A DNA stretch of 33,316 nucleotides from Stramenopiles sp. TOSAG23-6. Its lineage: Eukaryota. The stretch covers positions 1 to 33,316 of the forward strand of contig LT635955.1 in assembly GCA_900128565.1 (NCBI GenBank). Direction: 5' to 3'. Below, one piece after another: positions 4,547-33,316 of this stretch. A program made the translations under genes and the position numbers. Positions within the stretch are counted from its first letter, which is position 1. Every line of letters starts with the position of its first letter. The notes below the pieces were generated by a model. The model worked only from the letters and a program-made list of their open reading frames with translations, was not told where the DNA came from and made no database searches.

Positions 4547-6064
4547 ATGTCTTCACGACGTAAATCATGGAAATTTAGTCAATGCTTTGGAGATGATGGT
4601 CAAAATGGCCAAGTATCCGAAGCAGATATCTTATCTGCCGTAGAATTTAATCACTCAGGAGAGTATTTAGCAACAGGGGACAAAGGTGGTTGCATGTGTA
4701 TTTTCCGTCGTTGTAGCTCAGCTGACGGAGATCTAGAAGACCCAGAAGATTCTCCACCAAATTCCTCTTCATCACAGAAAAGTTCCGGCTTCTGGAGTAA
4801 AAGCCCAAAGTCTATTCCTGTTCAAAAAGATAATTCAAAAAGAAAAACTAGTTTACAATATAACTTCTACGCAGAGTTTCAGAGTCATGAACCAGAATTC
4901 GATTACTTAAAAAGTTTAGAAATTGAAGAAAAGATTAACAAGATCCGATTTTGTAGACATTCAAACGATTCTATTTTGTTGTTATCCACAAATGACAAAA
5001 CGATTAAGCTGTGGAAAGTGTATGAAAAGAAAATTAAACAAATTTCAAAGAAAAATATTACAAATTCAACTTCCTCGGTTGCGAGTGGTATGAATATTCA
5101 ACCAAAAGAGACTAAATGGACAAATAGTACTCCCATGATGAATGGTATGATTACTAGACCTACACTTACTATTCCAACTCTTACATATGGTGAATCCGTT
5201 GTTGCGGCATACAATCGGCGTAAATTTGAAAACGCTCACGCATATCATATCAACTCAATATCGCTTTGCAGTGATGGGGAAACTTTCATTTCCGCAGATG
5301 ACTTGCGAATCAATATGTGGAACTTGAACTTGTCCGGTCAAAGCTTTAAAATTGTTGATATTAAACCTGAAAACATGGAAATGTTGTCAGAAGTCATCAC
5401 AGCTGCTGAATACCATCCCTTCGATTGTAATACGTTTATGTATAGTAGTAGTTGTGGAAAAATTAATCTAGTTGATTTGAGACAAAAAGCAATTTGTGGA
5501 AAGTCAAATATGAAATGTTTTATGGAAGCTGAGCATCCCTCAGACAAAACTTTCTTTTCGGAAATTATTGCGTCTATATCACATGTTTGTTTTACACCAT
5601 GTGGAAAATACGCTGTTTCAAGAGACTATTTGAAGATGAAAATATGGGATACTGCGATGGAGTCAAAACCTGTCAAAGTTATCGATATCAATGAACATTT
5701 ACGACCTAAATTATCAGAATTATATGAAAATGATTGTATTTTTGACAAATTTGAATTTGCTGTGGGTAATAACAATGGTATTATGAGTGGATCATACGAT
5801 AGCAATATTAATGTATATGATTTCAATGGCACAGAACGAGCGAGGCTTCGCGTAGGTGTAGATACTTTGAAGGATAAAAAATCACCTTCAAAATTGGGTG
5901 GCTTTAAATTTAGTAAACGTCGAAATTCCTGTGGAGAATTTGGACAACCAAATCTAGATGATATTGATTTCTCAAAGAAGATTTTACATGTAGCGTGGAA
6001 TCCACATAGAGATGTTTGCGCTATAGCCGCTAAGTCGCAATTATTCATGTATGGTGTATTTTAA
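4547..6064 (+). CDS. PPP2R2: Protein phosphatase 2A regulatory subunit B55 (WD40)
   Basis: Hallmark motifs WKFSQCFG, ADILSAVEF, LATGDKGG, EFQSHEPEFDYLKSLEIEEKINKI, NAHAYHINSIS, SFFSEIIASIS-like and LYENDCIFDKFE. First ATG is at 4547; the ORF track starts at a TTG. Confidence 0.96.
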   Translation: MSSRRKSWKFSQCFGDDGQNGQVSEADILSAVEFNHSGEYLATGDKGGCMCIFRRCSSADGDLEDPEDSPPNSSSSQKSSGFWSKSPKSIPVQKDNSKRKTSLQYNFYAEFQSHEPEFDYLKSLEIEEKINKIRFCRHSNDSILLLSTNDKTIKLWKVYEKKIKQISKKNITNSTSSVASGMNIQPKETKWTNSTPMMNGMITRPTLTIPTLTYGESVVAAYNRRKFENAHAYHINSISLCSDGETFISADDLRINMWNLNLSGQSFKIVDIKPENMEMLSEVITAAEYHPFDCNTFMYSSSCGKINLVDLRQKAICGKSNMKCFMEAEHPSDKTFFSEIIASISHVCFTPCGKYAVSRDYLKMKIWDTAMESKPVKVIDINEHLRPKLSELYENDCIFDKFEFAVGNNNGIMSGSYDSNINVYDFNGTERARLRVGVDTLKDKKSPSKLGGFKFSKRRNSCGEFGQPNLDDIDFSKKILHVAWNPHRDVCAIAAKSQLFMYGVF

Positions 6065-6164: not shown

Positions 6165-7802
6165 TTACGAATAGGGGAGATTTTTTATACTTGGGTTCCA
6201 TACTTTAGGCTTCTTGATATTCCATGTTAGTACATCATTCACTTGTTTTTTTTTTTTTTTATGTACATCTCTAGTAAGTGGTCGAAGACCAACGTGCATT
6301 TCTGGTAATGCGGCAATAGACGCAGATACGCTTGCAATAGATCGCATTTGTTGCTGTTTTTGGCGCATTTCACTGAAGCAAGGAAATAATGGTTGTCGTT
6401 TCTGCGTATGTACTCGACTCTCGTTTTGCGATTCTTGTAATAAAGATGGCATTGATCGCGCTGAAGCCATGAATGGTGATGGAGTATTTAAGCGTTCTCT
6501 CATTTGCATTGTTTTTTCATAATAATTTTGTTGACTAAATCGATTACGCTTCGAAGATGTAGAAGAATCAATGGTATGTTTGGAAAATAGATCAAAAACA
6601 AGTCCTCCATATTTTTGAACCTTCGGGGTATACCTGTCAATATCAAAGTACTTGACTCCATTAGAACTTTCTTCGGATTCCAAAGAATTTCTTGATGACA
6701 CCTTTCTTGGTAACGATAGACTATCACTGCAGCTTTCAAATGGAGATTCTGGAAATATTGGATCGGATTGTTCAGTTGTGGTTACTTCATCTGTTATAAA
6801 TATTGGCAATCTAGTACTTTCTGGTTTTTCTTCTTTCTTCTTCTTATTATTAAAATTATTATCTCTACGATTTATATTGTAAATACCAAAGAAATCTTTG
6901 CCAATTTGTCTTTTTTTTTCATTTTGTAGATGCTTCGCATATTGTTCTTGTTTCCCACGCGTCAGCTCTTGATGACGTGAATGTTTCTGGAATCTCTTTT
7001 GATATTGATCCCGATAATTAGGTGATTTGCATTCAAACACCAAGCTTGTTTTGTCGTCAAAACCAAGCTCGTCGGTCACAATTTGTGCATTTATTTTCTC
7101 GTGCTTTTTTATATGAAATGTCGCCGCTAATCGATGGCGCCACACACCAACTCTGCCTTCAATAACCCAAACGCATTCATTGCGCTTCACAAGAGGTATG
7201 CCATTAAATGGTGGAAATTTCATACCTACAAACGGTTCAACAACAATAAATTCTTCTCGTAGTCCTGATATCTTTGAAAATACTTGACAAGGAGTGAGTT
7301 CACTACTCTTTCGGAAACCCAGTTCAATCCAGTCACCAATAGTGGGAAGTTTGCCATCTTGGGCAACATTCTTTCCAGTCTCATCTAATTTAAATTTTGC
7401 TTGGCGTAAATATAAAAAACGGTTGTACCTATCAACTCGATCTTGCCTTGTTGATACTCGTGAGGAATCACTCGGATTTGCAGCATACTTTTCAGGTGAT
7501 TTTCCTCTCACTGTTAATTCCTCTGATCGAATAACTGTGTTGTCGTGTTCTAATCGGCGACTCGCTATTCTTTTTCGATTTTCTTCTCGATGAAATGAAG
7601 TCGCTGCGTCTATAACAGCTTGGTTAACCGTCATTCCAGCAGCAAGCAAAAGACTTCCTAATGGATTTATTGAGCCACGCAAGCGATCTAATCCTGTTCC
7701 AAGATCTGACACACCTTTAGCATATGGTGCAAATTCTGGAGTTCTTGCAAGTAATGATAATCCAGTACGACTAACAAGTCGAAGTGCATTGGTGTTTGTC
7801 AT
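6165..7802 (-). CDS. Hypothetical protein region, likely 3' part of the LRR gene
   Basis: 545-codon ORF overlapping the upstream ORF's stop (ATGA), with no intergenic space and separated only by the N-rich patch. No recognisable domain. Confidence 0.65.
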   Translation of the reverse strand: MTNTNALRLVSRTGLSLLARTPEFAPYAKGVSDLGTGLDRLRGSINPLGSLLLAAGMTVNQAVIDAATSFHREENRKRIASRRLEHDNTVIRSEELTVRGKSPEKYAANPSDSSRVSTRQDRVDRYNRFLYLRQAKFKLDETGKNVAQDGKLPTIGDWIELGFRKSSELTPCQVFSKISGLREEFIVVEPFVGMKFPPFNGIPLVKRNECVWVIEGRVGVWRHRLAATFHIKKHEKINAQIVTDELGFDDKTSLVFECKSPNYRDQYQKRFQKHSRHQELTRGKQEQYAKHLQNEKKRQIGKDFFGIYNINRRDNNFNNKKKKEEKPESTRLPIFITDEVTTTEQSDPIFPESPFESCSDSLSLPRKVSSRNSLESEESSNGVKYFDIDRYTPKVQKYGGLVFDLFSKHTIDSSTSSKRNRFSQQNYYEKTMQMRERLNTPSPFMASARSMPSLLQESQNESRVHTQKRQPLFPCFSEMRQKQQQMRSIASVSASIAALPEMHVGLRPLTRDVHKKKKKQVNDVLTWNIKKPKVWNPSIKNLPYS

Positions 7803-9010
7803 ATTTTCTNTTTTTGTACNAAAAAANGTCTCTGNAGTGAAGAGTCAGGGGCATCTATACCAAACTCACCTATGCGAAGAGTAATATCGAGGGCTGTCCA
7901 AAGACAAATAGCACTTTCATACATTGTATCCCCATCGTTTAATCTTTTTAAAGCATCAACACAAAGTACATTAGCAACGCATACCATTGCATAAGAAGGT
8001 AGTCTCGATAAATTTCTAATTACAGTGGCACTGAGTTTGGAATTTACTTTATCATTTTCAGTGCCTACAACTAAAGGAGCTTTCACAATACTATTTAGAC
8101 ATTTTTCAAAAAGAAGCGACGGCACATGAAACATACTTACTACAACTAATAATGCGCATATATCAGATTGATTCAGCTCGTTACTTTTAGTGATTTGACC
8201 CGATTTAAATTCTAATGATTCATTACACGAAAAGGGAAGCTTTTGAATTGCTTCTATATCGACTTCTGGGAATATGCTTGTAGGATCTGCATCAGGATCA
8301 CCAAGTAACTTGAGGTGTCGAGAATCATGAGCTACTTGACGCAAATATATACGGAAAAGATGCTTCAAACGAAAGTCGTGTATCCATATTGGTTGGGTTG
8401 GTTCTGAAAGGGAAAGATTCAGAAAATCTGATTGATATTCTCCAAAATCAGTTGGCATTTGCCAACCAGTTGAGTTTCCCACATTTGAAACCTTAATCAA
8501 AATTTCTGATGAATTTTTGACACTACTTGATAATGTTGTTTCGCTTCTCTCACACTCGGTGATAAAGATGTCATCTAGTACCCAGATAGTCGTTAATAAC
8601 GATATTACTTTGGAACGATATTCTAATAGAGTCCTATCTTTTCTAAGTTTCCGATTACCTTGCAATACAAGACATAAAATATGCTTTTCTCGGATAGGAG
8701 ATAATGATTGAAACGTCAAGTCGTTGTCAGAAAGATTCAACCAGCCTAGAGCAGGTAGATGTGCCAATGCTCCTACATCTGACAAATAATTGTTCGATAA
8801 ATCTACACGCCAAAGGGACGATACTAATGAAGAAATGGAAGTTAGATGATTATTTCTTAAAAGTAGTGTTGTTAAAGATGAACACTGCTCAATAACTCCT
8901 CCTTCACGAAGCCTTTCTATACCCTTGCAATCTATACGCAAAGCTTGAAGTTTAGAAATTGGCTGCCCTCTAGCCTCCTTTATCAGTAAATCGCTTGAGA
9001 TTTCTCTCAT
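7799..9010 (-). CDS. SDS22-like leucine-rich repeat protein (probably 5' part of a gene continuing into 6165-7802)
   Basis: LRRs LTTLLLRNNHLTSI, LWRVDLSNNYLSDV, LGWLNLSDNDL and LVLQGN followed by an LRR cap (YRSKVISLLTTIWVLD). ATG at 9010. The ORF ends in an N-containing AT-rich patch. Confidence 0.8.
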   Translation of the reverse strand: MREISSDLLIKEARGQPISKLQALRIDCKGIERLREGGVIEQCSSLTTLLLRNNHLTSISSLVSSLWRVDLSNNYLSDVGALAHLPALGWLNLSDNDLTFQSLSPIREKHILCLVLQGNRKLRKDRTLLEYRSKVISLLTTIWVLDDIFITECERSETTLSSSVKNSSEILIKVSNVGNSTGWQMPTDFGEYQSDFLNLSLSEPTQPIWIHDFRLKHLFRIYLRQVAHDSRHLKLLGDPDADPTSIFPEVDIEAIQKLPFSCNESLEFKSGQITKSNELNQSDICALLVVVSMFHVPSLLFEKCLNSIVKAPLVVGTENDKVNSKLSATVIRNLSRLPSYAMVCVANVLCVDALKRLNDGDTMYESAICLWTALDITLRIGEFGIDAPDSSXQRXFXVQKXKI

Positions 9011-9284
9011 GTTTGAACACAAGATAATCTTGACTTGTTGATCTTTGACAAGTCTCTCTATCTTCGACAGTTACGAAGCACGCGGTCATGTAACGTTCTC
9101 GAATCACTTTTTAGTGATCCCAGTTGTCACAATTCGTATATATAGTAGTCAATCAATCACAAAATAATTGAGTGCTTCAATCACTGGCATTTTGATATTC
9201 GACAAATCCATGAAGGGCTAAATCATGTGCCTGCCATTACGTGCAATACGCTCGTTTACCGTATCAACAGTTCATTAATAGTTC

Positions 9285-20332: not shown

Positions 20333-23300
20333 ATGGATGCTGATGCACATATAGCAATGAAAGAATATAGGGGTGATGATTTGGATTCCGACTCGGATTC
20401 TGATGACGCTGTGGACGAATCGATGGCTGTGGACGAATCGATGGCTTTGGACGAATCGATGGCTTTGGACGAATCGATGGCTTTGGACGAAGACGGGTCA
20501 AGCACTATTGCTGTAGGTGGTTTTACAACTTCTACCGATGAATTTGAAGAGCCACCAAAAGAAGAATCTAAAGGTTCAAACGAAGAGTATGGTATCGATG
20601 ATGATCTCGACGACTCTGATAGCGAGTCTTCCATAGCTGAATCCTCAGATTCCTCTTCTGAGAGTGAATCTGACGATCCTGCTACTGCTGTAACGCTAGG
20701 TTGGCGACAGAGCTCTCGTTCTCGCGGAGGGAGCAAAGTATCATACGCAGAAGTGAATGAAAATGGGAAGAAGATTAAGAAAAAGTGGCGAACGAAGAAA
20801 AAGTTAACGAAAGCAGATCGTCGGCGAATAGAACAAAGAAAATCTCTTCCAAAGAAACAACAAATTCTGATTCCTCCACCTGGCGCAAAGATTCCTTTAG
20901 CAATTGAGCGTATTCTTGGACGTCGAGAATACCACCCAGATAGTTCGCCATCTTCAACACGCCATGCAATGACGTCTTCTCCTACTCATTCTCACTCTCC
21001 GCGTAAACATTTTGGATCTGTCCCTCGAGAGCAATATTTGGTAAAATGGAAAAAACGCAGTTATATACATGCAACCTGGGAAGATGTTGACGTCCTCCTA
21101 TCTTGGCATCCAAAAGGTCCATCTAAAATGAAGCAATTGATCCAAATTTTCTTGAAGCGTCAAGAGCGTGATCGTTGGAGTGGTGCTGTTATCGAAGAAA
21201 ATAATTTTCCGCAAGAGTACATTGAACCTGAGAAACTTCTTGAGTGGAAAGATTTTACACCAGCAGCTTCAGAAAGTTCATCAGCTGTGGGTAAAACGTC
21301 CGATGTAAATGATAAAGAAAAGAACACTACGACATTAGAAATAACTATTCCTAAAGCTGCTGCGCTAGATCCAAATCGTAGCACTATGTATGTTTTATTT
21401 TTTTTTNAANTCGANTTTTTTTTCGTACNAANTTTTGTACCTAACAAAAAAAAAATGAAATATTTTTCCAAAACACATTGAAGAGGAATCACGACATCGA
21501 AGGCGACTTTACTTTGGTTCGAATGAACCTAAAGGACGTTGGTTTCTTGTGAAATGGCATGGTCTTCAACATGAGGAATGTACGTTTTTATTTGAATTTA
21601 AAAATTATTTTTCCTACCTTAAAAATTCAATTGTAGAAATATATTTTTAACTCTATTTTTTTCTACAATATTTTTTTACTATACATCAACGTGGGAGTCA
21701 GAGGCCAATTTAGTTCACACAGGAAGTTTTAAAACTGCATTAAACATATGGAAAACTCATCAAAGTGTTATTCAGTATAAGAAAGCACCACCTCGTCCAT
21801 CTGCCACCAGTTTCGTTAAAATGAATGAGTCACCGGTATACTCTACACGGAATGGTGTTGGTGGTAAAAAAATTCAATTAAAACTTCGCGATTATCAGCT
21901 CACAGGTGTTAATTGGTTGCTCTTTAATTGGTATAATCGTCGAGGGTCAATATTAGCAGATGAAATGTATGNTTTTTTTTTTTTTGTGTGATTTTTTTTT
22001 CGTACGAAATTTTGTACCTAACATTTTTTTAGATTTGTTTTTGAAATATTTTTCACAAGACATGGGGTTAGGTAAGACTATTCAAACAATTGCGTTTCTT
22101 CGTGCTCTTAGCTCTGGGAGAGATAGTCAAGTTCGAGGACCTTTTCTAATTGTTGGCCCATTATCATGTATTAATCAATGGTATCGTGAGGTATCAGAGT
22201 GGTGGTCAGAAGCGAACATTATTTTCTATCATGGTAACGCTGCATCACGTCGCGTCATCCAAGAATATGAATGGTGGAAACGGGAGAAGACTGGTGTAAA
22301 TACTCCGGAATATAACTTTCAAGTAGTTGTAACTACATATGAAATGTGTACAATGGATTCGACCTTTTTGAGACGGGTTCCTTGGCAATGTGTTGTAGTT
22401 GACGAAGCTCACCGTTTAAAGAACCCTAATTCCAAATTAGCTCTGGAGCTTAGTCAATATCATCGAGAACATGTTGTTTTGTTAACTGGGACTCCATTGC
22501 AAAATAATATGAGTGAATTATGGGCTTTATTACATTTCACTGATGCATCGAAATTTCCCAGTCTTGACAAATTTTTAGATAATTTTGGCAATTTGAAAAA
22601 TAAAGGGCACAAAGCTGTCTCGCAGCTCCATGAAGTGCTCCGGCCATTTCTTTTACGGCGTTTGAAAGAAAATGTAGAAAAAAATCTTCCGCCAAAGGAA
22701 GAGACTATTGTTGAAGTACCTCTTATGCCATTACAAAAACAGTATTATCGTGCTATTTATGAACGTAATACGGATTTTCTATATAAAGGCGCTACTGCGG
22801 CGAATGGACCATCATTGATGAATGTTGTTATGGAATTACGTAAATGTTGTAATCATCCATATCTTATTCGAGGTGCAGAAGAATGGTTATCCTCGGGTAT
22901 TGATCTGAATGATTCAAAGGCTATATTTAATAGATTGGTTGAAGTATCTGGAAAAGTTGTATTACTGGATAAATTGCTTCCCAAACTTAAGGCTGGTGGT
23001 CATAAAGTTTTAATATTTTCACAAATGGTGCGCATGCTGAATATTTTAGCTGATTGGACAAAACATAAAGGTTTTGATACGGAGCGGATCGACGGTAGTA
23101 TACGTGGTAGTGAACGTCAAAATTCGATTGATCGGTACATGCAATCTCCTGATTCATTTCTTATGCTTCTTTCTACTCGCGCAGGTGGTGTTGGTATTAA
23201 TTTAACTGCTGCTGATACTGTTATTATTTTTGATAGTGACTGGAATCCACAAAATGATATTCAAGCTATGGCGCGTGCTCATCGAATTGGTCAAACAAAA

Positions 23301-26300
23301 CCTGTCAAAATATATCGGTTGTTAACGGCTAAAACATTTGAAGTTGAAATGTTTGAAAGAGCTTCAATGAAGCTTGGTTTAGATCAAGCTGTTTTGACTA
23401 ATGTTAATGATGGTACAAAAAGTAGTGGTGGTAATAATGGACAACATAAGTTAAGTACATCTGAAGTTGATGGTCTGTTGAAGCGCGGTGCGTACTCAGT
23501 ATTTCAAGATAGCGGCGATCATGCGGAATCCAAAGAGTTCTGTGCTGACGATATTGATGGAATTCTTGCTCGCTCTTCTTACATCAAAAAAGAAGATAAA
23601 GAAACACAAGAAAAACGTAGTCAAGCGAATAAGTTTTCTACAGCATCGTTTGTATCCTCGACAGCTGGTGATGTCGATATTGATGACCCCGATTTTTGGT
23701 CTAAAACTGCGGGTTTAGCTGGACCAAAAGAAGACGAGACTGTCACCAAATCTAAGGAATTGCTTGATTTAGAAGAATCAGAAGAAGAACAAAGTGATTT
23801 TGAAGAGCTATCTGATGACGAGATTGATTTTTACGACGATAAAGTAGTACCCGGTTCTCGCGACTTTGAGACAAATTTAGCTCTTTGGGGTTATGGAAGA
23901 TGGAATAAGTTTAACGAGAATGGTACTCATTCGGAAGCGAAAGTAAAATCACTCGCTGCGAAAATTATTCAAGAGTATTATAATCTTGCCGATCGAAAAA
24001 TAGATGAATTTGCAATTGATAATAAAAATAGGCCTCTCATGAAACGCATTCGCTCTGTGATCGAATCAGAAGCCAATAAGAGTATTCCTGTATCTAATGA
24101 AAACCCCGACAAAATGGATATTGATAGTCCAAATGAAGCGGTACCTTCTTCTGAGAAACCATCAAAAGTTGCTGTTGATATTTCTGAGTTGCAGTGGATG
24201 CCAGAAACCAAAGTTACTCGTGCCGTTGCTTCATTGCACCGCCAAGAAATGATGTGGCATTTACAACAGATTGTTCGACGTGCTGTACTTAATCAAATTA
24301 GTGATTTACAGAGTGGCTCCGATGTTCTCGAAGAAGCAATACGGGGAATTTCTGATGGAGTTTTAGATGCTACTAAACTTTGTCGTGATTTGCAGAAACT
24401 AGCATGTCCTCGATCTTCAAAAGGTTACAAACAACCTGCATTTTGGTGGGGTAATGAAGAGGATGGAGCTCTTCTTCTTGGAGTATTTTTACATGGTTGG
24501 GGTAAACATACAGAAATTCGTAAGAATAAGTTATTTAGTTTACGACGAAAATATGAAGAGTTGAGATCTGCGACGTCTGTGTTTGGCAATGATGAACCCA
24601 AAATAAGCGAGGAGGAATTATTGGCCAGGAAAATTGCGGAACATGAAGTTGCTATTAAAAAGCAACGTGAAGTCGAGGAAGCTGAATGGGAGTCAATTGA
24701 AACTGCACGGGTTGCTTCGCTCCATGAAAGATTTAGTACAGGTCTCGCTAGTGTTGTTATGTTCAAGGGGAAACCCGTTCGTGTCCGATGTAAGTTAAAT
24801 AACAAGAAACTTAATGTTGACCCAGTACAGTTGTTTACTAAACGAAGCGTTCCTCCTCATGGTTGGCAATGGAAACGAGATAGTTTAAAGAAAATCGTAG
24901 TTAGTAAAACTGTTCCATGGCCTAGTGATGAAACTCTGAATAAATACACGTGTTGGCTTCTTACACGTACGAAACATATTTCTGGAAATTCTCGTGGCCA
25001 AGCGAGACGTGCGCGTAGTGAGAAGCGTCAATTAGATCATTTACGTAATTTAGCTATTCAAAAAGCTATTAATGAAAGTTCCTGGGGTAGGTCAGAAACC
25101 ACTGCATTGATACGCATTCTCTGTCGAGTTGGAGCACCACCTGATTTAGGTAAAGCAAATAAACATGCAGCAAAGGAAATGGAAAATGATGCCACTTCAA
25201 ATGTAGTAAATGTTCCTGACAACAATGAAGTATTAAAAGCTCCATCATTTAGTTGGAAGGCTATCGTAGAAGAGGCCCAGATTTCAGGGAAAACGCATAC
25301 GGATGCTTCGCGATATTTTTATGACGAGTTATTTCCCCATGCGGTAAGTGTAATAGAAGCTAATGTGCCGTTGAATCCACAAGGTTCTTCGACCATAATG
25401 CCCCAGCTTTCACCAACTGATTATTCCGAAAGAGGAGTTAGGATAGCAAAGAAATTTGTCGAGCGCATACGTATCTTACGCGCTTTACGCAAACTCTGTG
25501 GTATGACATCAGATAAAGGAGTTGGAAATTGCGATGATTTAAAAAAAATACTGCTATACGATGCCAATATAGAGGATGTTCCTGTGTGGTGGGTACCTAA
25601 AATTCACGATTTTGCTATGTGGGTACAACTGGCAAATCATGGATTTGAGAAGTCTGCTGGAAAAGGAAAGCGTGCCGAAGTAGTAGATATATACAAGCTT
25701 CAAATGGATAGCGCTTCACCATTTTTCACACCTACACTTGCGGCGCATGTCAAACAAGAATTTGAAAAGGTAAATGGTAAGGATTTTTTTATTAAAGGTT
25801 CTCCAAATTTGACCCCTGAAGCTATTGATGAAAATATTGCGAATTGGTTTTTTAAAGTTGCAACCGAAATGCCGTCTCCTAAAGAAAGTATGAAACGTCT
25901 TCGCCGCCATGTTGGAGTGGATTTAGTTTTGTTGGATGGTAAGGAAGTTCCAACTCTGAAAACTCTCGGTGGTGGTGGTGGTGGTTCTTTTTGCAAGCTG
26001 TGGCGAAAGTTGTCTGGTACTACTGCGAAACAACGAAGAAAAGGCGAGAAGAGACAGAGAAAGTCAGTCAAGGCATGTATTTCATGGATTATTACACAAA
26101 TTGAAAATGCGGAAAAAACGAAATTGAAAGAAGCTAGGGCTGCTCAACGTGCTGCAGACAGAGCCGCAAAACGAGATGAAAAAATAGCCAGGCTTGTAAA
26201 AGATAAACTTGACTCTATGATTCGTAAATTGGAAGGCGAAGAGCAAGCGGCACAAAGAAAAATTGTAGCTCAACAAAAAATAGTTTCTTCTGTTCTGTAT

Positions 26301-27470
26301 AGTATCATTCTGCGCGTTGAAAAATTGGAACGGGCCGATAAGAGGGCGAAAGATCGTGAGTTTTTACGCAATGCTAAAGCACACGAGAGAGAAAAAATAA
26401 ATTTGATCAATGCTCAAATTCGAGCACATCGTAGCATGATGAATAAAAAAAGAAAGAAGAAAGGACCACGCGGGAAGGTTTCTCTTCATGGTCTCATCAC
26501 AGCGGGCCTTCTTGTACCTGGAACTGGCGTCTTTTATATTGATTACCGGGATAAACAGTTTAGAGCTTCTTTAGCAGAAGATGGCACTTTGATCGATGAT
26601 GAAACAGGCGAAAAGTTTCTTACTCCTTCCGGTTGGAGTATTAAAGCGAAACGTCGTCTCATGCCTTCAAAACAAGCAGATGATGGCTGGAAGAGTGTTA
26701 AATATGAAGGTTCTGCTTTGGAACTTGTGAAAAAAGACTATCTCATTAATATTTTAGGACCAATGAATGGCATTCCTCCACCGCCTCCTGAAGAAAGTGT
26801 TTGCGTTGAAGATGAAGAGAGGTTATCAGAGCTTCTTAATTTAAAAGAAACTCTTGAAGCTGAAGCAATTGCGAATAAGGGAAAACCTCGACCTCTCCCA
26901 GCGAATCCTAAAATGACTATAACGTTTTCAAAGAGACCTTCTGGTGGATGGACGGCTGTGCCTTTTAAGAGTGGAAATAAAAAGCGACCAAGAAACGACA
27001 GTCTAGGTGGCTCTGCAAATAAAAAGTCAAAGACTGGAAATGGTATATCAAAATCTCATAGTAATAATACATTTGTATCCGGTCTAGGTCGAAAAAAGAG
27101 AAAGCCGAGTGGCTCCGCCGAAAAGAAGAAGAAAAAGAAAAAGAAGAAAAGAAAGAAGGCTAGTGATGCTAAAATTGACCATTCAATTGCAGTACAACAC
27201 AATTTGGCTTTATGGAAAAAATGGAATAGTCAATTACGCCGATCATCGAAATATGGAAGTACGACTGATGTCATGAATATGCTGGAAAAGTTAAAAAATA
27301 GTAAGGTTGCTTCTTTGTCGGTTCTTTCGGAAGTTGGCATTGGGAAAACTGTTGGAAAGTTGGCTCGCAAGCATGCTGATGAAAGTATTCGCCAGACAAG
27401 TGAACTTTTAGTGAAACGATGGCGTGAAGCTGCTCAAGCTGAGACAAATGGAATTACTGGTGGGATTTAG
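20333..27470 (+). CDS. CHD-family (CHD6-9/Kismet-like) chromatin remodeller. Exons 20333-21387, 21479-21579, 21687-21966, 22064-27470
   Basis: Chromodomain 1 (QYLVKWKKRSYIHATWE), chromodomain 2 (WFLVKWHGLQHEE/STWE), LRDYQLTGVNWLLFNWYNRRGSILADE/MGLGKT, DEAH box, LLSTRAGGVGINL, DSDWNPQNDIQAMARAHRIGQ. C-terminal RAMA and TFIIS-N-like domains. The frame is restored by removing three GT-AT inserts. Confidence 0.93.
20408..20491 (+). repeat. 18-bp coding minisatellite (A(V/L)DESM x about 4.7)
   Basis: gct(g/t)tggacgaatcgatg repeated at 20408, 20426, 20444 and 20462, partial at 20480. Confidence 0.93.
21388..21478 (+). other. Non-canonical GT-AT intron A (91 nt) in CHD gene
   Basis: actAT|GTATG...ttttgTACCTAAC...gaaatatttttccaaaacaCAT|tgaa joins NRST-I-EEESRH in frame with chromodomain 2. 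An in-frame AG exists about 24 nt downstream but would skip two nearer AGs. Confidence 0.8.
21580..21686 (+). other. Non-canonical GT-AT intron B (107 nt) in CHD gene
   Basis: gaggaAT|GTACG...aatatttttttactataCAT|caacgtgg restores chromodomain HEE-S-TWESE. Nearby AG acceptors give TAA (21636), a frameshift (21697) or TAG (21701). Confidence 0.88.
21967..22063 (+). other. Non-canonical GT-AT intron C (97 nt) in CHD gene
   Basis: gatgaaAT|GTATG...tttcgtacgaaattttgTACCTAAC...gaaatatttttcacaagaCAT|ggggttaggtaag restores the invariant ILADE-M-GLGKT. The AGs ending at 22032 and 22059 are out of frame. Confidence 0.93.
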
Positions 27471-27602
27471 TTATATTTCATTTCAGATAAAATTATTTTC
27501 AAGTAATACAGTATTTTTATGGGCTCAATGATAAGTTTATTGTATTATATGTGACGTATATTTTTCTCTGCGCTGTAATCAAAATAGTTAGTAGTGATAT
27601 AT

Positions 27603-29060
27603 TTATGTCATTGTCTTTGTGCTCTTCTGTCGCATCATTTGAAGAAATTCACTGTAGTCAACTTCTGAGTCGTCCCCTCCGACTTCAAGGAGCATTTTTT
27701 GTACCTTTTCATCATCATACTGAACACCTAGAACCTGTTGTAGATCTTCTTTTGAAATGGCACCACTTCCGTCAACGTCAAGTTTTGTGAATGCTTCCTT
27801 GAGCCGTGCTTCATCCATGTACGTTTTTTGGTCTAGACAAGCAGTCACAAATTCAGATAACTCCAATTTGCCATCATTTGTTGCATCTAAACCTTGGAAT
27901 ATTTTATCTACTTCAGCCTCGGTTATTGCACCTGTTTTTGTGATGGCATCTCGAAGTTCATGCATCGTAACAAATCCATCGTAGTTTGTATCCATGGCTA
28001 AGAATTGTGCTTGTATTTCTTGAATCTGACTTGGAGTTAGACTGAAAGCAACAGTTGCAACGGCCATTCTTTTAAATTCATTCAAGTTCTTGAATTTAAT
28101 CATATTTTCACAAATTTCTCTATTTAGTTGAACTTGTGGGTGATCAGCTTGTTCTTTGATGATCCATTTGTGATTCAACGCTTGTCGTGCTGTAAGGCGT
28201 TTTGATGGATCTTTTACTAACAGCTTATTAATAAAGTCTTTCCCATCATCTGAGACTTTTCCCCATACAGGAGAGAACATTGTATATTCACCTATCCTTA
28301 CGTTTGAAATAATCTCAGAATCTGTCTCTCCAGGAAAAGGAGGGTTACCTGATAAAAGCATGTACGTAATCACACCAATTGACCAGAGATCGCACGCGGA
28401 GGTGTATTCGTGGTCAAGGACTTCAGGGGCAATGTAATAGGATGTCCCAACAACAGAAGCCATCTTTGTACTTGACATACATTTTACTCTTTTGGAAAAC
28501 CCAAAATCAATCATTTTTAGAACGCTATCTTCTGCCTTGGTTGCAAATATGAAGTTCTCTAATTTGAGATCTCTGTGAACCATATTTTTGTTGTGAATAT
28601 AATTCAAAGACTGCAGCATCTGTAAAACAACATTTGCTGCAGCAGCCTCATTGAAGCGCGAGTTTTCAGAGTCTAGTAGTCGATCAAATAACTCACCTCC
28701 CGTGCAAAGCTCCATAATCATATACATATTTTGGCCCGTTTCTTCAAATGCTTCGTACAAACGCGCAACATTTGGGTGATCCATTGAAGCAAACAATGTA
28801 ATTTCATCACGTATTTGCTTCAAGCTAGTGGCACTATTCGAACCAATTTTCATTACTTTTAGAGCAAACTTCTGGCCATCGCTTCTACGAGAAACGATCG
28901 AAACTTTACCTGAGACACCTTCTCCCAAGAAATCTGTATTGTCAACTCCAGAATACTTTTTCCGAATTGCAGCGCAGTCACAAATATGATACTTCACAAG
29001 ATTTTCGTGCATTGTTCTGTTTTCATTTGAAATAGCTGCCTTTCCTCCACATATTCCCAT
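27603..29060 (-). CDS. Calcium-dependent protein kinase (CDPK)
   Basis: MGICGG (likely myristoylation/palmitoylation), LGEGVSGKV, HRDLKLENF, DFG, GTSYYIAPEVL, a junction region and four EF-hand-like loops (DTNYDGFVTMHE, DATNDGKLELSE, DVDGSGAISKED, DDSEVDYSE). Intronless. Confidence 0.95.
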   Translation of the reverse strand: MGICGGKAAISNENRTMHENLVKYHICDCAAIRKKYSGVDNTDFLGEGVSGKVSIVSRRSDGQKFALKVMKIGSNSATSLKQIRDEITLFASMDHPNVARLYEAFEETGQNMYMIMELCTGGELFDRLLDSENSRFNEAAAANVVLQMLQSLNYIHNKNMVHRDLKLENFIFATKAEDSVLKMIDFGFSKRVKCMSSTKMASVVGTSYYIAPEVLDHEYTSACDLWSIGVITYMLLSGNPPFPGETDSEIISNVRIGEYTMFSPVWGKVSDDGKDFINKLLVKDPSKRLTARQALNHKWIIKEQADHPQVQLNREICENMIKFKNLNEFKRMAVATVAFSLTPSQIQEIQAQFLAMDTNYDGFVTMHELRDAITKTGAITEAEVDKIFQGLDATNDGKLELSEFVTACLDQKTYMDEARLKEAFTKLDVDGSGAISKEDLQQVLGVQYDDEKVQKMLLEVGGDDSEVDYSEFLQMMRQKSTKTMT

Positions 29061-29372
29061 AATTGGTTGCTTGGATAACGTCAGCAGTTACCGGTGAAAT
29101 TAAGTTTATGATTCGATAGAGGAGTATTTGAAGAAGGGTACCAGTTGACGTTGAACGTCGATCTTCTTGGACGTATGTAAGATCTGAAGATCTTTGATTT
29201 TAAACTGAAAAAAAAACTATTGATTTCGTGTATTCGGAGAAGAGTCCAACCAATTCGTAACTGTTGCTGTTCTAGTATTCTTTCTTTTCCTTCTTGTTTA
29301 GAGCAAGTCAAGAAGTCCTCAATGAGTCATTGCATACACTAATTGTTTCTCCTATTGCATTATCTCAGGGCC

Positions 29373-30934
29373 ATGCCCCCTAAATCAGATCGCTATGTGA
29401 AGTTGTCAAAGGAAGATCAGGGAATTTTTGTTCCACGACCTATTGAGCAGCAAGTGAGACGAGATGCTTACAACCCAATGAGTGTTGATGACTTTCTAGA
29501 TGAATATGAGGAAAAGTATATGGACGAAGATTTTATGGCTGTTGTTGCAGATGGAAAACTTACTAATACGGAAAGGCTTAAAATGCAATTGCGTAAGGAG
29601 AACGGTAAATATAAACGGGTAAATTTAACAAGTCAAATAATGTCAAGAGCAGAAAATATAAGGGGAAAGGAGTTGCAGGAAGTTAAAAAAGAATTTAAGA
29701 TGAAAACGTTTCATGAGAAACAGAAACGTCGAATTTCTATAGCAACAACTAATGAACCATTAGCAAAAAAAATATTACGTTTTTTATCATGTGGCCCAAC
29801 ACCAGGGAAACTACCACATCCAAAAGTTCAAGCAAAATTTCTACCTAAAATTGTTCGTGCTGACTATGTACGTTTTCATCTCAATTTTTTGTCTAAATAT
29901 TTTTTTCATACGAAATTTTGTACCTAACATTTTTTTTTTTTGAAATATTTTTTCATAATCCATGACTCGGTTTCAAAGGCTTTGAAGTTCAACCAACCAG
30001 TGAATTATTGCGACAACTTGAATCGATCTGGTTTATATTTAGCAACATTCTATGGTTATACACATATAGTTCAGCTTCTTTGCGCATATAATGCTGATCC
30101 AAACATATGTGAACTTGAAAAGGAACAAAATGCAGGGCATGTGGCCGCAGAAAAAGGCTATGGTGACATTCTAGATTATTTATTAGACCGAGGTTTAGAT
30201 TTAACAATGGGAGACAAAATGGGTCTCACCCCCTTAATGCATGCAGCTAATGCGGGTCATTATAAAACATGCATAATGATGTATGTTTTATTTTTTTTTT
30301 TAAACAAAAAATCGAATTTTGTTTTCGTACGAAATTTTGTATTTAACAAAAATATTGAATGTAAAATATTTTTCAAAATACATAGTGGAATGTGATATTA
30401 AGATAGACATGGTCGATAATAGGCGGTGGACAGCCTTGCATTATGCAAGTCAAAAAGGGTTTTATAGAATCTGTAAATATTTGGCCGCGCAAGGATGTAC
30501 GTTTTCATAATGAATTTTTACGAAATTGTTTTTTCGTACTAAATTTCGTACCTAACATTTTTTTTACTAAAAAAAAAATATTTTTCACATTACATGGGAC
30601 TCATATTGTAAAGACATGAATGGGCAAACACCATTAGATATTGCAGAGATGGAGCTAGATAATATTATAAAAAGTGCGTTTCGTTGATGAATTTCAAATT
30701 AATTTTGTTTTTATACGAAATTTTGTATTAATACCTAACGAATCTCGAATCTAAAATAATGTTCACAATTTATGTACTCGAGGATTATCCCCTGAAGAAG
30801 CAAAACTTTTCAATGAGAAAAATGCAATTATGATAGAAAACTATGAAAATGTAATAAATGTGCTTAATACTGATATGACTGATTGGAGAGCAGTTGAAGA
30901 ATTAAAGAGACAAAAAGAATTAAACAATAGGTAA
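29373..30934 (+). CDS. Ankyrin-repeat protein. Exons 29373-29867, 29964-30280, 30384-30496, 30596-30673, 30774-30934
   Basis: After removing four inserts there is a continuous ORF with consecutive ankyrin repeats (RSGLYLATFYG, QNAGHVAAEKG, LTPLMHAANAGH, WTALHYASQKG, GQTPLDIA) ending at TAA 30932-30934. Confidence 0.85.
29868..29963 (+). other. Non-canonical GT-AT intron D (96 nt) in ankyrin gene
   Basis: gactAT|GTACG...cgaaattttgTACCTAAC...gaaatattttttcataatcCAT|gactcg contains an in-frame TAA and joins RAD-Y-DSVSKAL. An in-frame AAG at 29978 is possible but would delete 5 residues of the ankyrin-like helix. Confidence 0.75.
30281..30383 (+). other. Non-canonical GT-AT intron E (103 nt) in ankyrin gene
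   Basis: atgAT|GTATG...ttttcgtacgaaattttgtatttaac...aaaatatttttcaaaataCAT|agtggaa gives GHYKTCIMIVECDIKIDMVDNRRWTALH with exact ankyrin spacing. The adjacent AG (30384-30385) leads to TGA three codons later. Confidence 0.88.
30497..30595 (+). other. Non-canonical GT-AT intron F (99 nt) in ankyrin gene
   Basis: caaggAT|GTACG...tttcgTACCTAAC...aaaatatttttcacattaCAT|gggactca gives GWDSYCKDMNGQTPL, matching the spacing of G-A-D-V-N-A-K-D-x-x-G-x-T-P-L. Contains an in-frame TAA. An in-frame AG at 30613 would delete 6 residues of the repeat. Confidence 0.85.
30674..30773 (+). other. Probable GT-AT intron G (100 nt, divergent family member)
   Basis: aaaa|GTGCG...tatacgaaattttgtattaaTACCTAAC...aaaataatgttcacaattTAT|gtactcga has the same motif-to-end spacing as the other copies. 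An in-frame GAG acceptor at 30782 is an alternative. Confidence 0.65.
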
Positions 30935-31865: not shown

Positions 31866-32752
31866 GGCGTGCTATTCAAATGAAGGAGAAATAACAAAGA
31901 AACAGGTGTAGCGTTTTCAGTCCCACAAGTGATACTCTCTTTGTGTCAAGTTTGTTGGTGTTATGGCATATCTCTAGCAATTTTGACTCGAAGTTCGGAA
32001 CTGGTCAGTCAAAAAAAAAGATAAAAAAAAAAAGATAAAAAAAAAAGGGAAAAAGGGGGGTCATATTAGATCTTATTGCCCCCGCACCATGCGCCCGTCG
32101 CAGTATTATATGAGAGGGGTAGTCTGAATTGAGATGAAAACTGATTCGTCGTGAAACACGAAAAATTTGAATTTCTCAATTTATTGCTGCTTCCCTTTAA
32201 TTTTTGCGCTTGCAAAAAGACATTACTGATACATTTTCCGCATTGATTGCTTTTAAAGCGAGAGATGAGTGAAATCTATTAGGGTCAGTTGAAAAGCCTT
32301 CAGCACCGATGCACTGGTGATGACTGAAGCTCTGACGGAGAGTTTGTACTATTCCGCTATGCGTATTAGTATAATGCACTCAACCCGCAATGGACCTGTC
32401 GATTGAAGCCTATATGAATGTATCACTTTGATATATGAAATATTTGCATTAGATGTGATTAGACCTTGCACCGTCGGTTTATCTTGGTAAAGTGTCCACC
32501 ATATTGTTGATAATATGACTGTGTGACTACTTTTCGATGATTAGACTGAGGGAGGATTTCAGTAGGCAATTGGAAACGCATTAGTTCATGAGTATAGTCG
32601 TTTGACTGTAGTACATTAGACTGATTGCATTACAAATTACACACTGAAAGAAAACACTGGAACATTTATTAGTTTAAATATTCCTGTTTTCACAACGACT
32701 TGTGTATAGTATTGTACTTTAGTATGGTATTATATACAAGGCATATGATAGT
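31866..32752 (+). other. Spacer expected to hold the Pol I promoter and 5' ETS (and the divergent SDR promoter)
   Basis: Positional inference: non-coding DNA directly upstream of 18S. Includes an A-tract repeat (A9-GAT-A11-GAT-A10-GGG-A5-G6) at 32011-32060. Confidence 0.6.
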
Positions 32753-33316
32753 AACCTGGTTGATCCTGCCAGTAGTCATACGCTCGTCTCAAAGATTAAG
32801 CCATGCATGTGTAAGTATAAACAATTTTATACAGTGAAACTGCGAACGGCTCATTATATCAGTTATAGTTTATTTGATAATACCTTACTACTTGGATAAC
32901 CGTAGTAATTCTAGAGCTAATACATGCATTAAATTCTCTTCTTCTGGTGGAGATGCGTTTATTAGATATCAACCAACCCTTTTCGGAGGCCTTTGGTGAG
33001 TCATAATAACTGTGCGGATCGCAGAGGCCTTTGTGCCGGCGATGAATCATTCAAGTTTCTGCCCTATCAGCTTTCGATGGTAGTGTATTGGACTACCATG
33101 GCGGTGACGGGTAACGGAGAATTAGGGTTCGATTCCGGAGAGGGAGCCTGAGAAATGGCTACCACATCCAAGGAAGGCAGCAGGCGCGTAAATTACCCAA
33201 TCCCAATTCGGGGAGGTAGTGACAATAAATATCAATGCGGGGCACACAGTGTCTTGCAATTGGAATGAGTACAATTTAAATCCCTTAACGAGGATCGATT
33301 GGAGGGCAAGTCTGGT
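32753..33316 (+). rRNA. 18S rRNA: 18S (SSU) rRNA gene, 5' part (3'-truncated by window)
   Basis: Starts AACCTGGTTGATCCTGCCAGTAGTCAT, and contains conserved GATTAAGCCATGCATG, CCGGAGAGGGAGCCTGAGA, CCAAGGAAGGCAGCAGGCGCG and GAGGGCAAGTCTGGT. The CATACGCTCGTCTCAAAG variant suggests a stramenopile. Confidence 0.99.

Follow-up and report, generated by a model that had tools for sequence, protein, structure and literature searches.

We describe a family of short, AT-rich inserts in a 33,316-nucleotide (nt) stretch of DNA from Stramenopiles sp. TOSAG23-6 (assembly GCA_900128565.1, contig LT635955.1; the whole stretch is hereafter called the window). Seven copies interrupt two unrelated protein-coding genes of the window, one for a CHD-type chromodomain helicase and one for an ankyrin-repeat protein. 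The copies are related to one another, the piece that must leave each gene extends from GT to AT, and the inserts are present in independently sampled seawater DNA, where the element is heavily repeated. From these observations we infer that the inserts leave the RNA and not the DNA, that the spliceosome removes them, and that the family spreads as a DNA transposon. Our favored explanation, to which we assign a probability of roughly 0.6, is a mobile family of GT-AT introns (introners) removed by the spliceosome. The host genes and inserts are listed below, with insert coordinates in the GT..AT register as established by three-frame translations and anchor searches; E denotes expectation value.

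20333 to 27470, + strand: host gene 1, encoding a CHD-type chromodomain/SNF2 helicase with RAMA and Med26-like domains (Pfam); 2280 amino acids (aa) without inserts A, B and C.
21388 to 21478, + strand: insert A, 91 nt, in host gene 1; GTATGT...CACAT, exonic AT before, CCTAAC at 21440-21445; profile E 2.9e-13.
21580 to 21686, + strand: insert B, 107 nt, a diverged member within the chromodomain; GTACGT...TACAT, AT before; profile E 2e-5.
21967 to 22063, + strand: insert C, 97 nt, within SNF2 helicase motif I; ATG direct repeats, exact 26-mer core, CCTAAC at 22017-22022.
29373 to 30934, + strand: host gene 2, encoding an ankyrin-repeat protein; 387 aa without inserts D, E, F and G.
29868 to 29963, + strand: insert D, 96 nt, in the ankyrin gene; GTACGT...TCCAT, ATG direct repeats, CCTAAC at 29923-29928.
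30281 to 30383, + strand: insert E, 103 nt, in the ankyrin gene; GTATGT...TACAT, AT direct repeats, variant core with TTTAAC at 30342-30347.
30497 to 30595, + strand: insert F, 99 nt, in the ankyrin gene; GTACGT...TACAT, ATG direct repeats, CCTAAC at 30551-30556; best profile match, E 5.9e-19.
30674 to 30773, + strand: insert G, 100 nt, in the ankyrin gene; GTGCGT...TTTAT, AA before and GT after, CCTAAC at 30734-30739; profile E 1.5e-14.

Likeness among the inserts spans their full length. Copies A, C, D, E, F and G are 64-87% identical in pairwise comparison, and the more diverged B shares 55-64% identity with the other copies. A profile built from the copies recognized the six at E 6e-19 to 3e-13 and still detected B (E 2e-5). 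When the window was searched with the 26-mer core that an earlier note on this DNA had offered as a query, five matches with at most three mismatches were obtained, all on the + strand, where 0.00 were expected (100 shuffles). Alignment revealed three conserved blocks: 11 nt at the 5' end, (AT)GTAYGTTTT, with a family consensus start of (AT)GTATGTTTT; a core of about 34 nt that includes a perfect 12-nt palindrome, TTTCGTACGAAA, followed by TTTTGTACCTAAC; and about 22 nt at the 3' end, AAATATTTTTCACAATACAT. The palindrome lies mid-element (e.g., 21998-22009), ahead of the branch-like site; no role in splicing is known for it, and a protein might bind there. An eighth copy was found on metagenome contig L022, in sense orientation inside an unrelated open reading frame (ORF), with ATG repeats and GT...AT ends; its removal leaves the frame open. 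These comparisons support a single repeated family residing in unrelated genes, with likeness well beyond splice signals. The earlier note had recognized the shared internal sequence and narrow length range, and had held that likeness limited to splice signals would speak against an introner; what we found was likeness reaching far past them. A scan against known RNA families gave a sole match, ARRPOF, at E 0.088, far short of threshold, and it was rejected. An intron-encoded small nucleolar RNA was likewise dismissed, with no conserved box pattern across copies.

The flanks of the inserts are as uniform as their interiors. Exonic AT precedes six of the seven window inserts and all seven end in AT, a repeat lengthened to ATG in C, D and F; around G the corresponding pair is GT...GT. 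This is the pattern that the earlier note had reported, and its reading of GT...AC between the AT pairs also holds for five of the seven (A, B, C, E and F), with GTA...TAC in B, E and F. AT accounts for 8.6% of the dinucleotides in the coding sequences of the two host genes, and the chance that at least six of seven inserts would be preceded by it is P = 2.6e-6; with the L022 copy included (7/8), p = 2.5e-7. All eight copies are in sense orientation (two-sided p = 0.008). Insertion phases across the seven are mixed (0, 1, 1, 1, 2, 2, 2), and lengths are confined to 91-107 nt. Inserts A, B and C lie within the first 1.7 kb of the CHD gene, and D, E, F and G within the 1.56-kb ankyrin gene. The span that had originally been given, 21386..30596, takes in inserts as described, but its end coordinate omits copy G. 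Five N letters fall in copy A and one in copy C. As a side observation, start-to-start spacings of neighboring inserts are 192, 387, 413, 216 and 177 nt; these five values approximate a unit of about 200 nt or its double; introners elsewhere are said to favor nucleosome linkers.

The extent of the piece to be removed is set by the proteins that result. Exact GT...AT removal by coordinate yields frames of 2280 and 387 aa with zero internal stops, and at six of the seven junctions the products align without gaps to orthologues (P0002, P0005 and P0008 for host gene 1; P0121 and P0122 for host gene 2, whose product is 69% identical to the former and 61% to the latter). At the B junction the alignment to P0002, P0005 and P0008 is gap-free, and the junction residue is S in the host protein and C or S in the homologues. 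Removal of C rebuilds a contiguous SNF2 motif I identical to that of three homologues. Junctions D, E and F are collinear with P0121 and P0122 without gaps, and excision of 100 nt at G gives an equal-length, gap-free alignment to P0121. Canonical GT-AG readings, tried by hand for A, C, D and E, break the frame for C and E. In the gene model P0003, which comes from the window's own species, 1938 of 1950 aligned residues are identical to the product of host gene 1, 330 of the 2280 residues of that product are absent in 12 blocks, and part of insert C is translated as protein. Canonical-only gene finding fails on this genome.

At the protein level, relatives appear to lack the interruptions. Orthologues P0002, P0121, P0122 and P0005 run uninterrupted through the insert sites, a comparison of proteins, some of which may derive from transcripts. 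P0122 (328 aa) and P0005 (2316 aa) are encoded on contigs of 1430 and 7390 nt that are barely longer than the ORF. P0002 and P0121 are ab initio-style gene models that are perfectly collinear with the GT-AT-spliced products, and P0003 is broken at the same sites. As indirect evidence, the uninterrupted relatives suggest that the inserts were recently gained.

The termini of the inserts are best described in one register. GT..AT fits all eight copies, the seven of the window and that of L022, and AT..AC fits six. The AT repeat makes six copies equally readable as AT...AC or TG...CA; in the register shifted by two bases D becomes AT...CC and G becomes AA...TT. AT...AC is excluded as a common register because of copy G (and D). 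Thus, the GT...AC inside AT repeats that the earlier note had singled out does describe the ends of the element, but not necessarily the cut sites, since only GT...AT fits D and G. The donor is GTAYGT in seven of eight copies and GTGCGT in G; CCTAAC is present in seven of eight, with TTTAAC in E. In the six window copies with the core, this branch-like site is 34-42 nt from the 3' end and a U-rich tract follows it. Such distances would fit major-type introns and not the geometry of minor-type ones. At the 3' end, YAT is invariant (8/8), the triplet upstream of the insert is YAT in three of eight and NAT in seven of eight, and the 5' end is always GT, not AG (8/8). Minimum-energy folding paired the ends in one of six folded copies (z scores of -2.4 to +0.6) and revealed no stable common terminal hairpin; we therefore lowered the standing of hairpin-guided models.

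Independent DNA contains the inserts in place. Contigs were recruited to the window from position 21433 (excluding the 5' half of A with its N letters) at 90% likeness or more and counted in 376-nt bins. X3 is a seawater DNA run of a study independent from the likely source, and X6 and X10 are RNA runs. In X3, record 17 (456 nt, 2 differences) spans B and the 5' half of C in place, record 22 runs from the end of D through the exon into the start of E, and record 18 covers the 6.4-kb helicase exon. Insert-bearing contigs have a depth of 5.0-5.5, versus 3.3-8.1 on flanking pieces. Because X3 contigs span the inserts at flank-like depth, the inserts are real, belong to the main DNA form of the natural population, and are not assembly artifacts.

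The same data reveal heavy repetition. Contigs break inside element cores, as a repeat would give, and 4260 contigs were recruited from X3. Summed word depth, which is not a copy number and to which other organisms may contribute at 90% likeness, reached 16653 in the C bin, 13498 in the D bin, 1968 for E, 653 for F and G, and 272 in the bin with the 3' end of A and B, in comparison to 8.1 on the helicase exon. Given this order of bins, recruitment tracks closeness to the core consensus and not mere AT-richness. Contigs from other loci begin matching at 30279 and 30495, the AT before GT, and stop at 21478 and 29963/29964, the T of CAT; beyond those borders their loose ends agree at only 0.39-0.5, indicating unrelated flanks. 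These breakpoints support a repeat unit that ends where the insert ends. We take the recruitment to mean that the community sampled contains copies by the hundreds to thousands, which is a reading and no measured figure.

The RNA runs also contain the element. Unspliced element reached summed depths of 3184 in X6 and 4934-5287 in X10, versus no more than 5.6 on exons. Unspliced copies are thus present in RNA libraries, which neither proves nor refutes efficient splicing. The sole hint of a spliced transcript is X10 record 8, a poly(A) RNA contig that matches the exon up to 30278, just before E, and continues with 27 unplaced letters, the pattern that a spliced transcript would give. A search for short proteins that spliced RNA contigs would encode gave no match. 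Parts of the window left uncovered by the RNA runs are not evidence, and RNA-run shares of 0.06-0.16 say nothing about habitat or expression level.

Collectively, these data are consistent with a high-copy, short (about 90-107 nt), AT-rich, non-autonomous introner family in a host of the marine stramenopile (MAST) lineage MAST-3. The element would supply a U2-type donor (GTAYGT) and a U-rich tract, together with the branch-like CCTAAC in every copy except E. It may insert at an AT that is duplicated (2 bp), or else separate the A from the T, such that the second AT turns acceptor. The major spliceosome would then cut before GT and after the terminal YAT, generating a non-canonical GT-AT intron. 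Micromonas introners take their acceptor from the target duplication (PMC11282704); the proposed design would likewise carry the 5' site and co-opt the 3' site, with a non-AG acceptor. We speculate that a G-U contact of the first and last intron bases could replace the usual G-G. The fuller proposition, that MAST-3 carries hundreds to thousands of transposon-born introns, cut as GT...AT by the major spliceosome with the second copy of the 2-bp duplication as acceptor, we rate an even bet. Helitron ends read TC...CTRR, and a Helitron-like insertion between A and T was rejected because the TG...CA ends misfit this pattern; G misfits too.

Several points weigh against a spliced, transposing GT-AT element. 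Junction A lies in a poorly conserved stretch, where homology does not settle it; P0003 uses a canonical GT-AG alternative at this place (21305-21485) that is also in frame. For D an in-frame GT-AG alternative also exists, but it deletes 5 residues kept by P0121 and P0122. Copy C contains two AGs between CCTAAC and the 3' end, one of which follows a T-run about 12 nt past the branch-like A and should be preferred by a standard spliceosome; its use breaks the frame. GT-AT is, to our knowledge, not an established efficient intron class, and a literature search on GT-AT introns found nothing. The inverted ends, ATGTAT/ATACAT, span no more than about 6 nt, with 4-6 of 6 positions matched in seven copies and 2 of 6 in G. 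Flanks are known for eight copies only, and the limits on the depth sums given above count here as well. A profile search of the window, covering 33 kb and one contig, found no extra, antisense or intergenic copy. The introner reading of the earlier note is strengthened by a single family, a repeat unit equal to the insert, heavy repetition, and orthologues that run through six of the seven sites; no autonomous element was found, and the longer, transposase-coding relatives that it had envisaged did not turn up in the window, in L022 or in three collections. Finally, the ratio of element to exon in RNA resembles that in DNA, and no RNA contig joining two exons was seen among the 15 joints listed (238 further), a list dominated by cross-matches between copies that neither shows nor excludes exon-exon joints.

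The alternatives differ in how the family would spread and how it would leave the gene. The same family might propagate as an intron, with excised RNA reverse-splicing, followed by reverse transcription and recombination, and with exonic AT reflecting a proto-splice-site preference. This scheme would account for eight of eight sense copies with no intergenic or antisense copy found, for full intron signals in one orientation only, for very short inverted ends, and for clustering in genes at 3 and 4 per gene. Yet the AT...AT pair and the ATGTA...TACAT symmetry resemble a duplication plus terminal inverted repeat; moreover, eight copies in gene-dense DNA cannot reveal intergenic ones, and selection would purge antisense insertions from exons. 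Well-studied introner families have also turned out to be DNA transposons (PMC11282704; PNAS 2025). We judge reverse splicing unlikely, with the qualification that eight sense copies in gene-dense DNA cannot decide between DNA spread, where AT would be a target duplication, and RNA reverse splicing, where it would be proto-splice context. Old introns that resemble one another only through long fixed splicing signals, with no mobility, would explain why the conserved blocks take in the donor, branch-like site and 3' tract. Their likeness, however, also takes in about 20 nt ahead of the branch-like site, where the 12-nt palindrome with no known splicing role lies, and copies in different genes are up to 87% identical over their full length. 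Orthologous proteins and long ORFs in relatives give no sign of introns at these sites, the phases are mixed, and thousands of contigs were recruited at 90% likeness or more; we consider ancient, immobile introns highly improbable.

Other proposals concern the mode of removal. Excision two bases upstream, as AT...AC introns of U2-type AT-AC or minor-spliceosome kind, is compatible with six of eight copies, for which both registers give identical protein. A-C is a known alternative terminal intron pair, and CCTAAC resembles the minor-type branch site; both likenesses speak for this register. Minor-type introns have the donor consensus RTATCCTT and a branch site about 10-20 nt from the 3' end, whereas ATGTAYGT misfits that donor, GTAYGT matches the major-type donor well, the branch-like site at 34-42 nt lies beyond the minor-type range, and D and G would become AT...CC and AA...TT. 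We regard the AT...AC register as improbable. Still less probable is non-spliceosomal RNA removal guided by end pairing, in which a terminal helix would be cut with a two-base stagger and the exons then ligated. The self-complementary ATGTAT...ATACAT includes the AT pair and would offset the cut sites by 2 nt in the helix, the acceptor is non-AG with AGs left unused in copy C, and such removal has been considered for the non-conventional introns of euglenids and the introners of Amoebophrya. The helix would be only about 6 AU-rich pairs, the ends pair in one of six folded copies (z -2.4 to +0.6), and a strong donor and branch-like motif, needless for this route, are retained. DNA-level removal like that of ciliate internal eliminated sequences, the alternative offered by the earlier note, finds some appeal in the short inverted ends and dinucleotide repeat, and in the precise loss of an element plus one repeat copy that typifies such systems. 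Against it stand 8/8 sense orientation, borders that are AT and not TA, X3 DNA that contains the inserts at a depth of 5.0-5.5 versus 3.3-8.1 on flanks, and the lack of any insert-free DNA joint among the 15 joints listed. The host groups with MAST-3 stramenopiles, which are not known to have germline and somatic nuclei, and we hold DNA-level removal to be the least probable explanation of all.

Transposon-like introns, sometimes with non-canonical ends, are already a known kind, and the GT-AT inserts share features with several systems. Introners of Micromonas pusilla and Aureococcus anophagefferens are likewise short non-autonomous repeats with short inverted ends in many unrelated genes of marine picoeukaryotes, Aureococcus being a stramenopile as well; there one splice site comes with the element and the other from the duplicated target, as we propose here (PMC11282704). 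Those introns are GT/GC-AG with duplications of 3 bp (Micromonas) or longer, whereas the present family has an AT acceptor, a 2-bp repeat and inverted ends of about 6 nt. They are DNA transposons resembling miniature inverted-repeat transposable elements (MITEs) and create introns (PMC11282704); for the window family both splicing and transposition are proposed. In Fritillaria borealis, a modified U2 spliceosome removes AG/AT and AG/AC introns in which a YAY triplet precedes the donor and recurs at the 3' end (PMC13326754). These MITE-derived introns resemble ours in a YAY/YAT acceptor in place of AG, a repeat shared by the upstream exon border and the intron's 3' end, and apparently lineage-specific positions, and differ in an AG donor, very diverse termini and a share of 95% of introns, as opposed to canonical GTAYGT, one terminal pair and one family (PMC13326754, PMC11282704). 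The upstream triplet is YAY in that tunicate, versus YAT in 3/8 and NAT in 7/8 copies of the stramenopile family.

Introners of Amoebophrya sp. A25 and A120, also from a marine protist, are repeated non-canonical introns in which border-overlapping direct repeats hide the exact cut, as they do here (PMC7789003). Amoebophrya differs in 8-20 nt inverted-repeat hairpins, 3-5 nt direct repeats, many families, an absence of common terminal dinucleotides, and a U1 that was not found (PMC7789003); our inserts have no predicted stable terminal hairpin and a strong U1-type donor. Euglenid non-conventional introns share non-canonical borders, junction repeats resembling target-site duplications, and short inverted ends, and are set apart by end-pairing, the lack of a polypyrimidine tract and widely varying length, in contrast to the narrow lengths, U-rich tract, donor and branch-like motif of our family (PMC11282704). 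To U12-type AT-AC introns the inserts are linked by the six of eight copies readable as AT...AC and by a CCTAAC near the minor branch consensus; they depart from that class in a different donor, a branch-like site too far from the 3' end, and the misfit of D and G. The accessible sections of MAST genome papers PMC5778133, PMC8163842 and PMC12614181 do not mention non-canonical introns, nor do those of a 2026 preprint, which give intron proportions only. The word intron itself never occurs in PMC8163842 or PMC12614181 and occurs twice in PMC5778133, outside those sections. A literature search on MAST and introners found nothing on MAST introns, and a search of 12 of the 13 supplement files of a 2025 introner survey (PMC12130899) did not turn up the core motif. 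Within the literature covered, this insert family looks undescribed.

Three contig collections were scanned by pattern for further copies. A scan of metagenome_contigs returned 29 loci, about the chance number, of which L022 alone was true and the other 28 were without family flanks; scans of viral_contigs (2 loci) and genome_contigs (4 loci) gave chance matches only. On L022, 1571-1602 is a weak partial profile match to the element core (E 0.18). The same contig has telomere-like CCCTAAA/TTAGGG motifs and three copies of a unit of about 57 nt (about 1750-1830 and 1340-1520, minus-strand numbering), located between two convergent genes.

The window is gene-dense eukaryotic nuclear DNA with a per-kb GC content of 29-44% and long uninterrupted ORFs on both strands. 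Their products include the CHD-type protein, a calcium-dependent protein kinase, ankyrin, LRR, WD40 and RRM proteins, and a short-chain dehydrogenase (Pfam). Setting aside P0001, a contig-derived self copy, the top protein match to the helicase exon is P0003, a EukProt MAST-3 gene model, followed by EukProt model P0002, Incisomonas P0008 and oomycetes. These best protein matches place the host in MAST-3, a lineage of uncultured marine stramenopiles, which agrees with the seawater metagenomes and metatranscriptomes containing the DNA. Protein Atlas gave only broad hints on the kinase (ciliates, diatoms) and was not used for placement.

Additional features of the window were observed. Near the N-terminus of the CHD protein, about four tandem 18-nt units (20390-20490, +) encode a repeated acidic peptide. 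Toward its C-terminus are the RAMA domain (26440-26750, +; E 1e-21) and a Med26/TFIIS-like helical domain (27290-27440, +), an unusual combination in one CHD protein that is common to orthologue P0002. The 5' 564 nt of an 18S ribosomal RNA gene occupy the window end (32753-33316, +; Rfam, 534 bits). The approximately 750 nt ahead of it (31990-32750) are non-coding with long A-runs, and protein-coding genes directly adjoin the ribosomal DNA. A candidate ordinary 38-nt GT-AG intron (7832-7869, -; GTGAGT...CAG) would link overlapping ORFs 7799-9070 (LRR) and 6165-7844. The join is in frame by hand count, and four N letters adjoin it, making a sequencing frameshift the alternative. If this intron is real, canonical introns coexist with the GT-AT family in the host.

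At present, introners offer the best account of how bursts of intron gain arise, and few systems (Fritillaria, Amoebophrya, euglenids) bear on how far the spliceosome bends to neutralize transposon insertions. A canonical donor and branch-like site combined with a fixed non-AG acceptor would constitute a clean natural experiment on 3' splice-site choice, with a single, testable variable. If the fuller proposition is true, the inserts would add a terminal class to the spliceosomal introns, and no non-canonical introner system would have come before them in stramenopiles. Standard gene finders would miss them, and this would account for the breaks of P0003 at the inserts. MAST-3 is an abundant and ecologically important lineage of uncultured marine predators. 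If the family is as common as X3 recruitment suggests, predicted proteomes of this lineage are systematically damaged, and re-annotation with GT-AT introns allowed would be needed.

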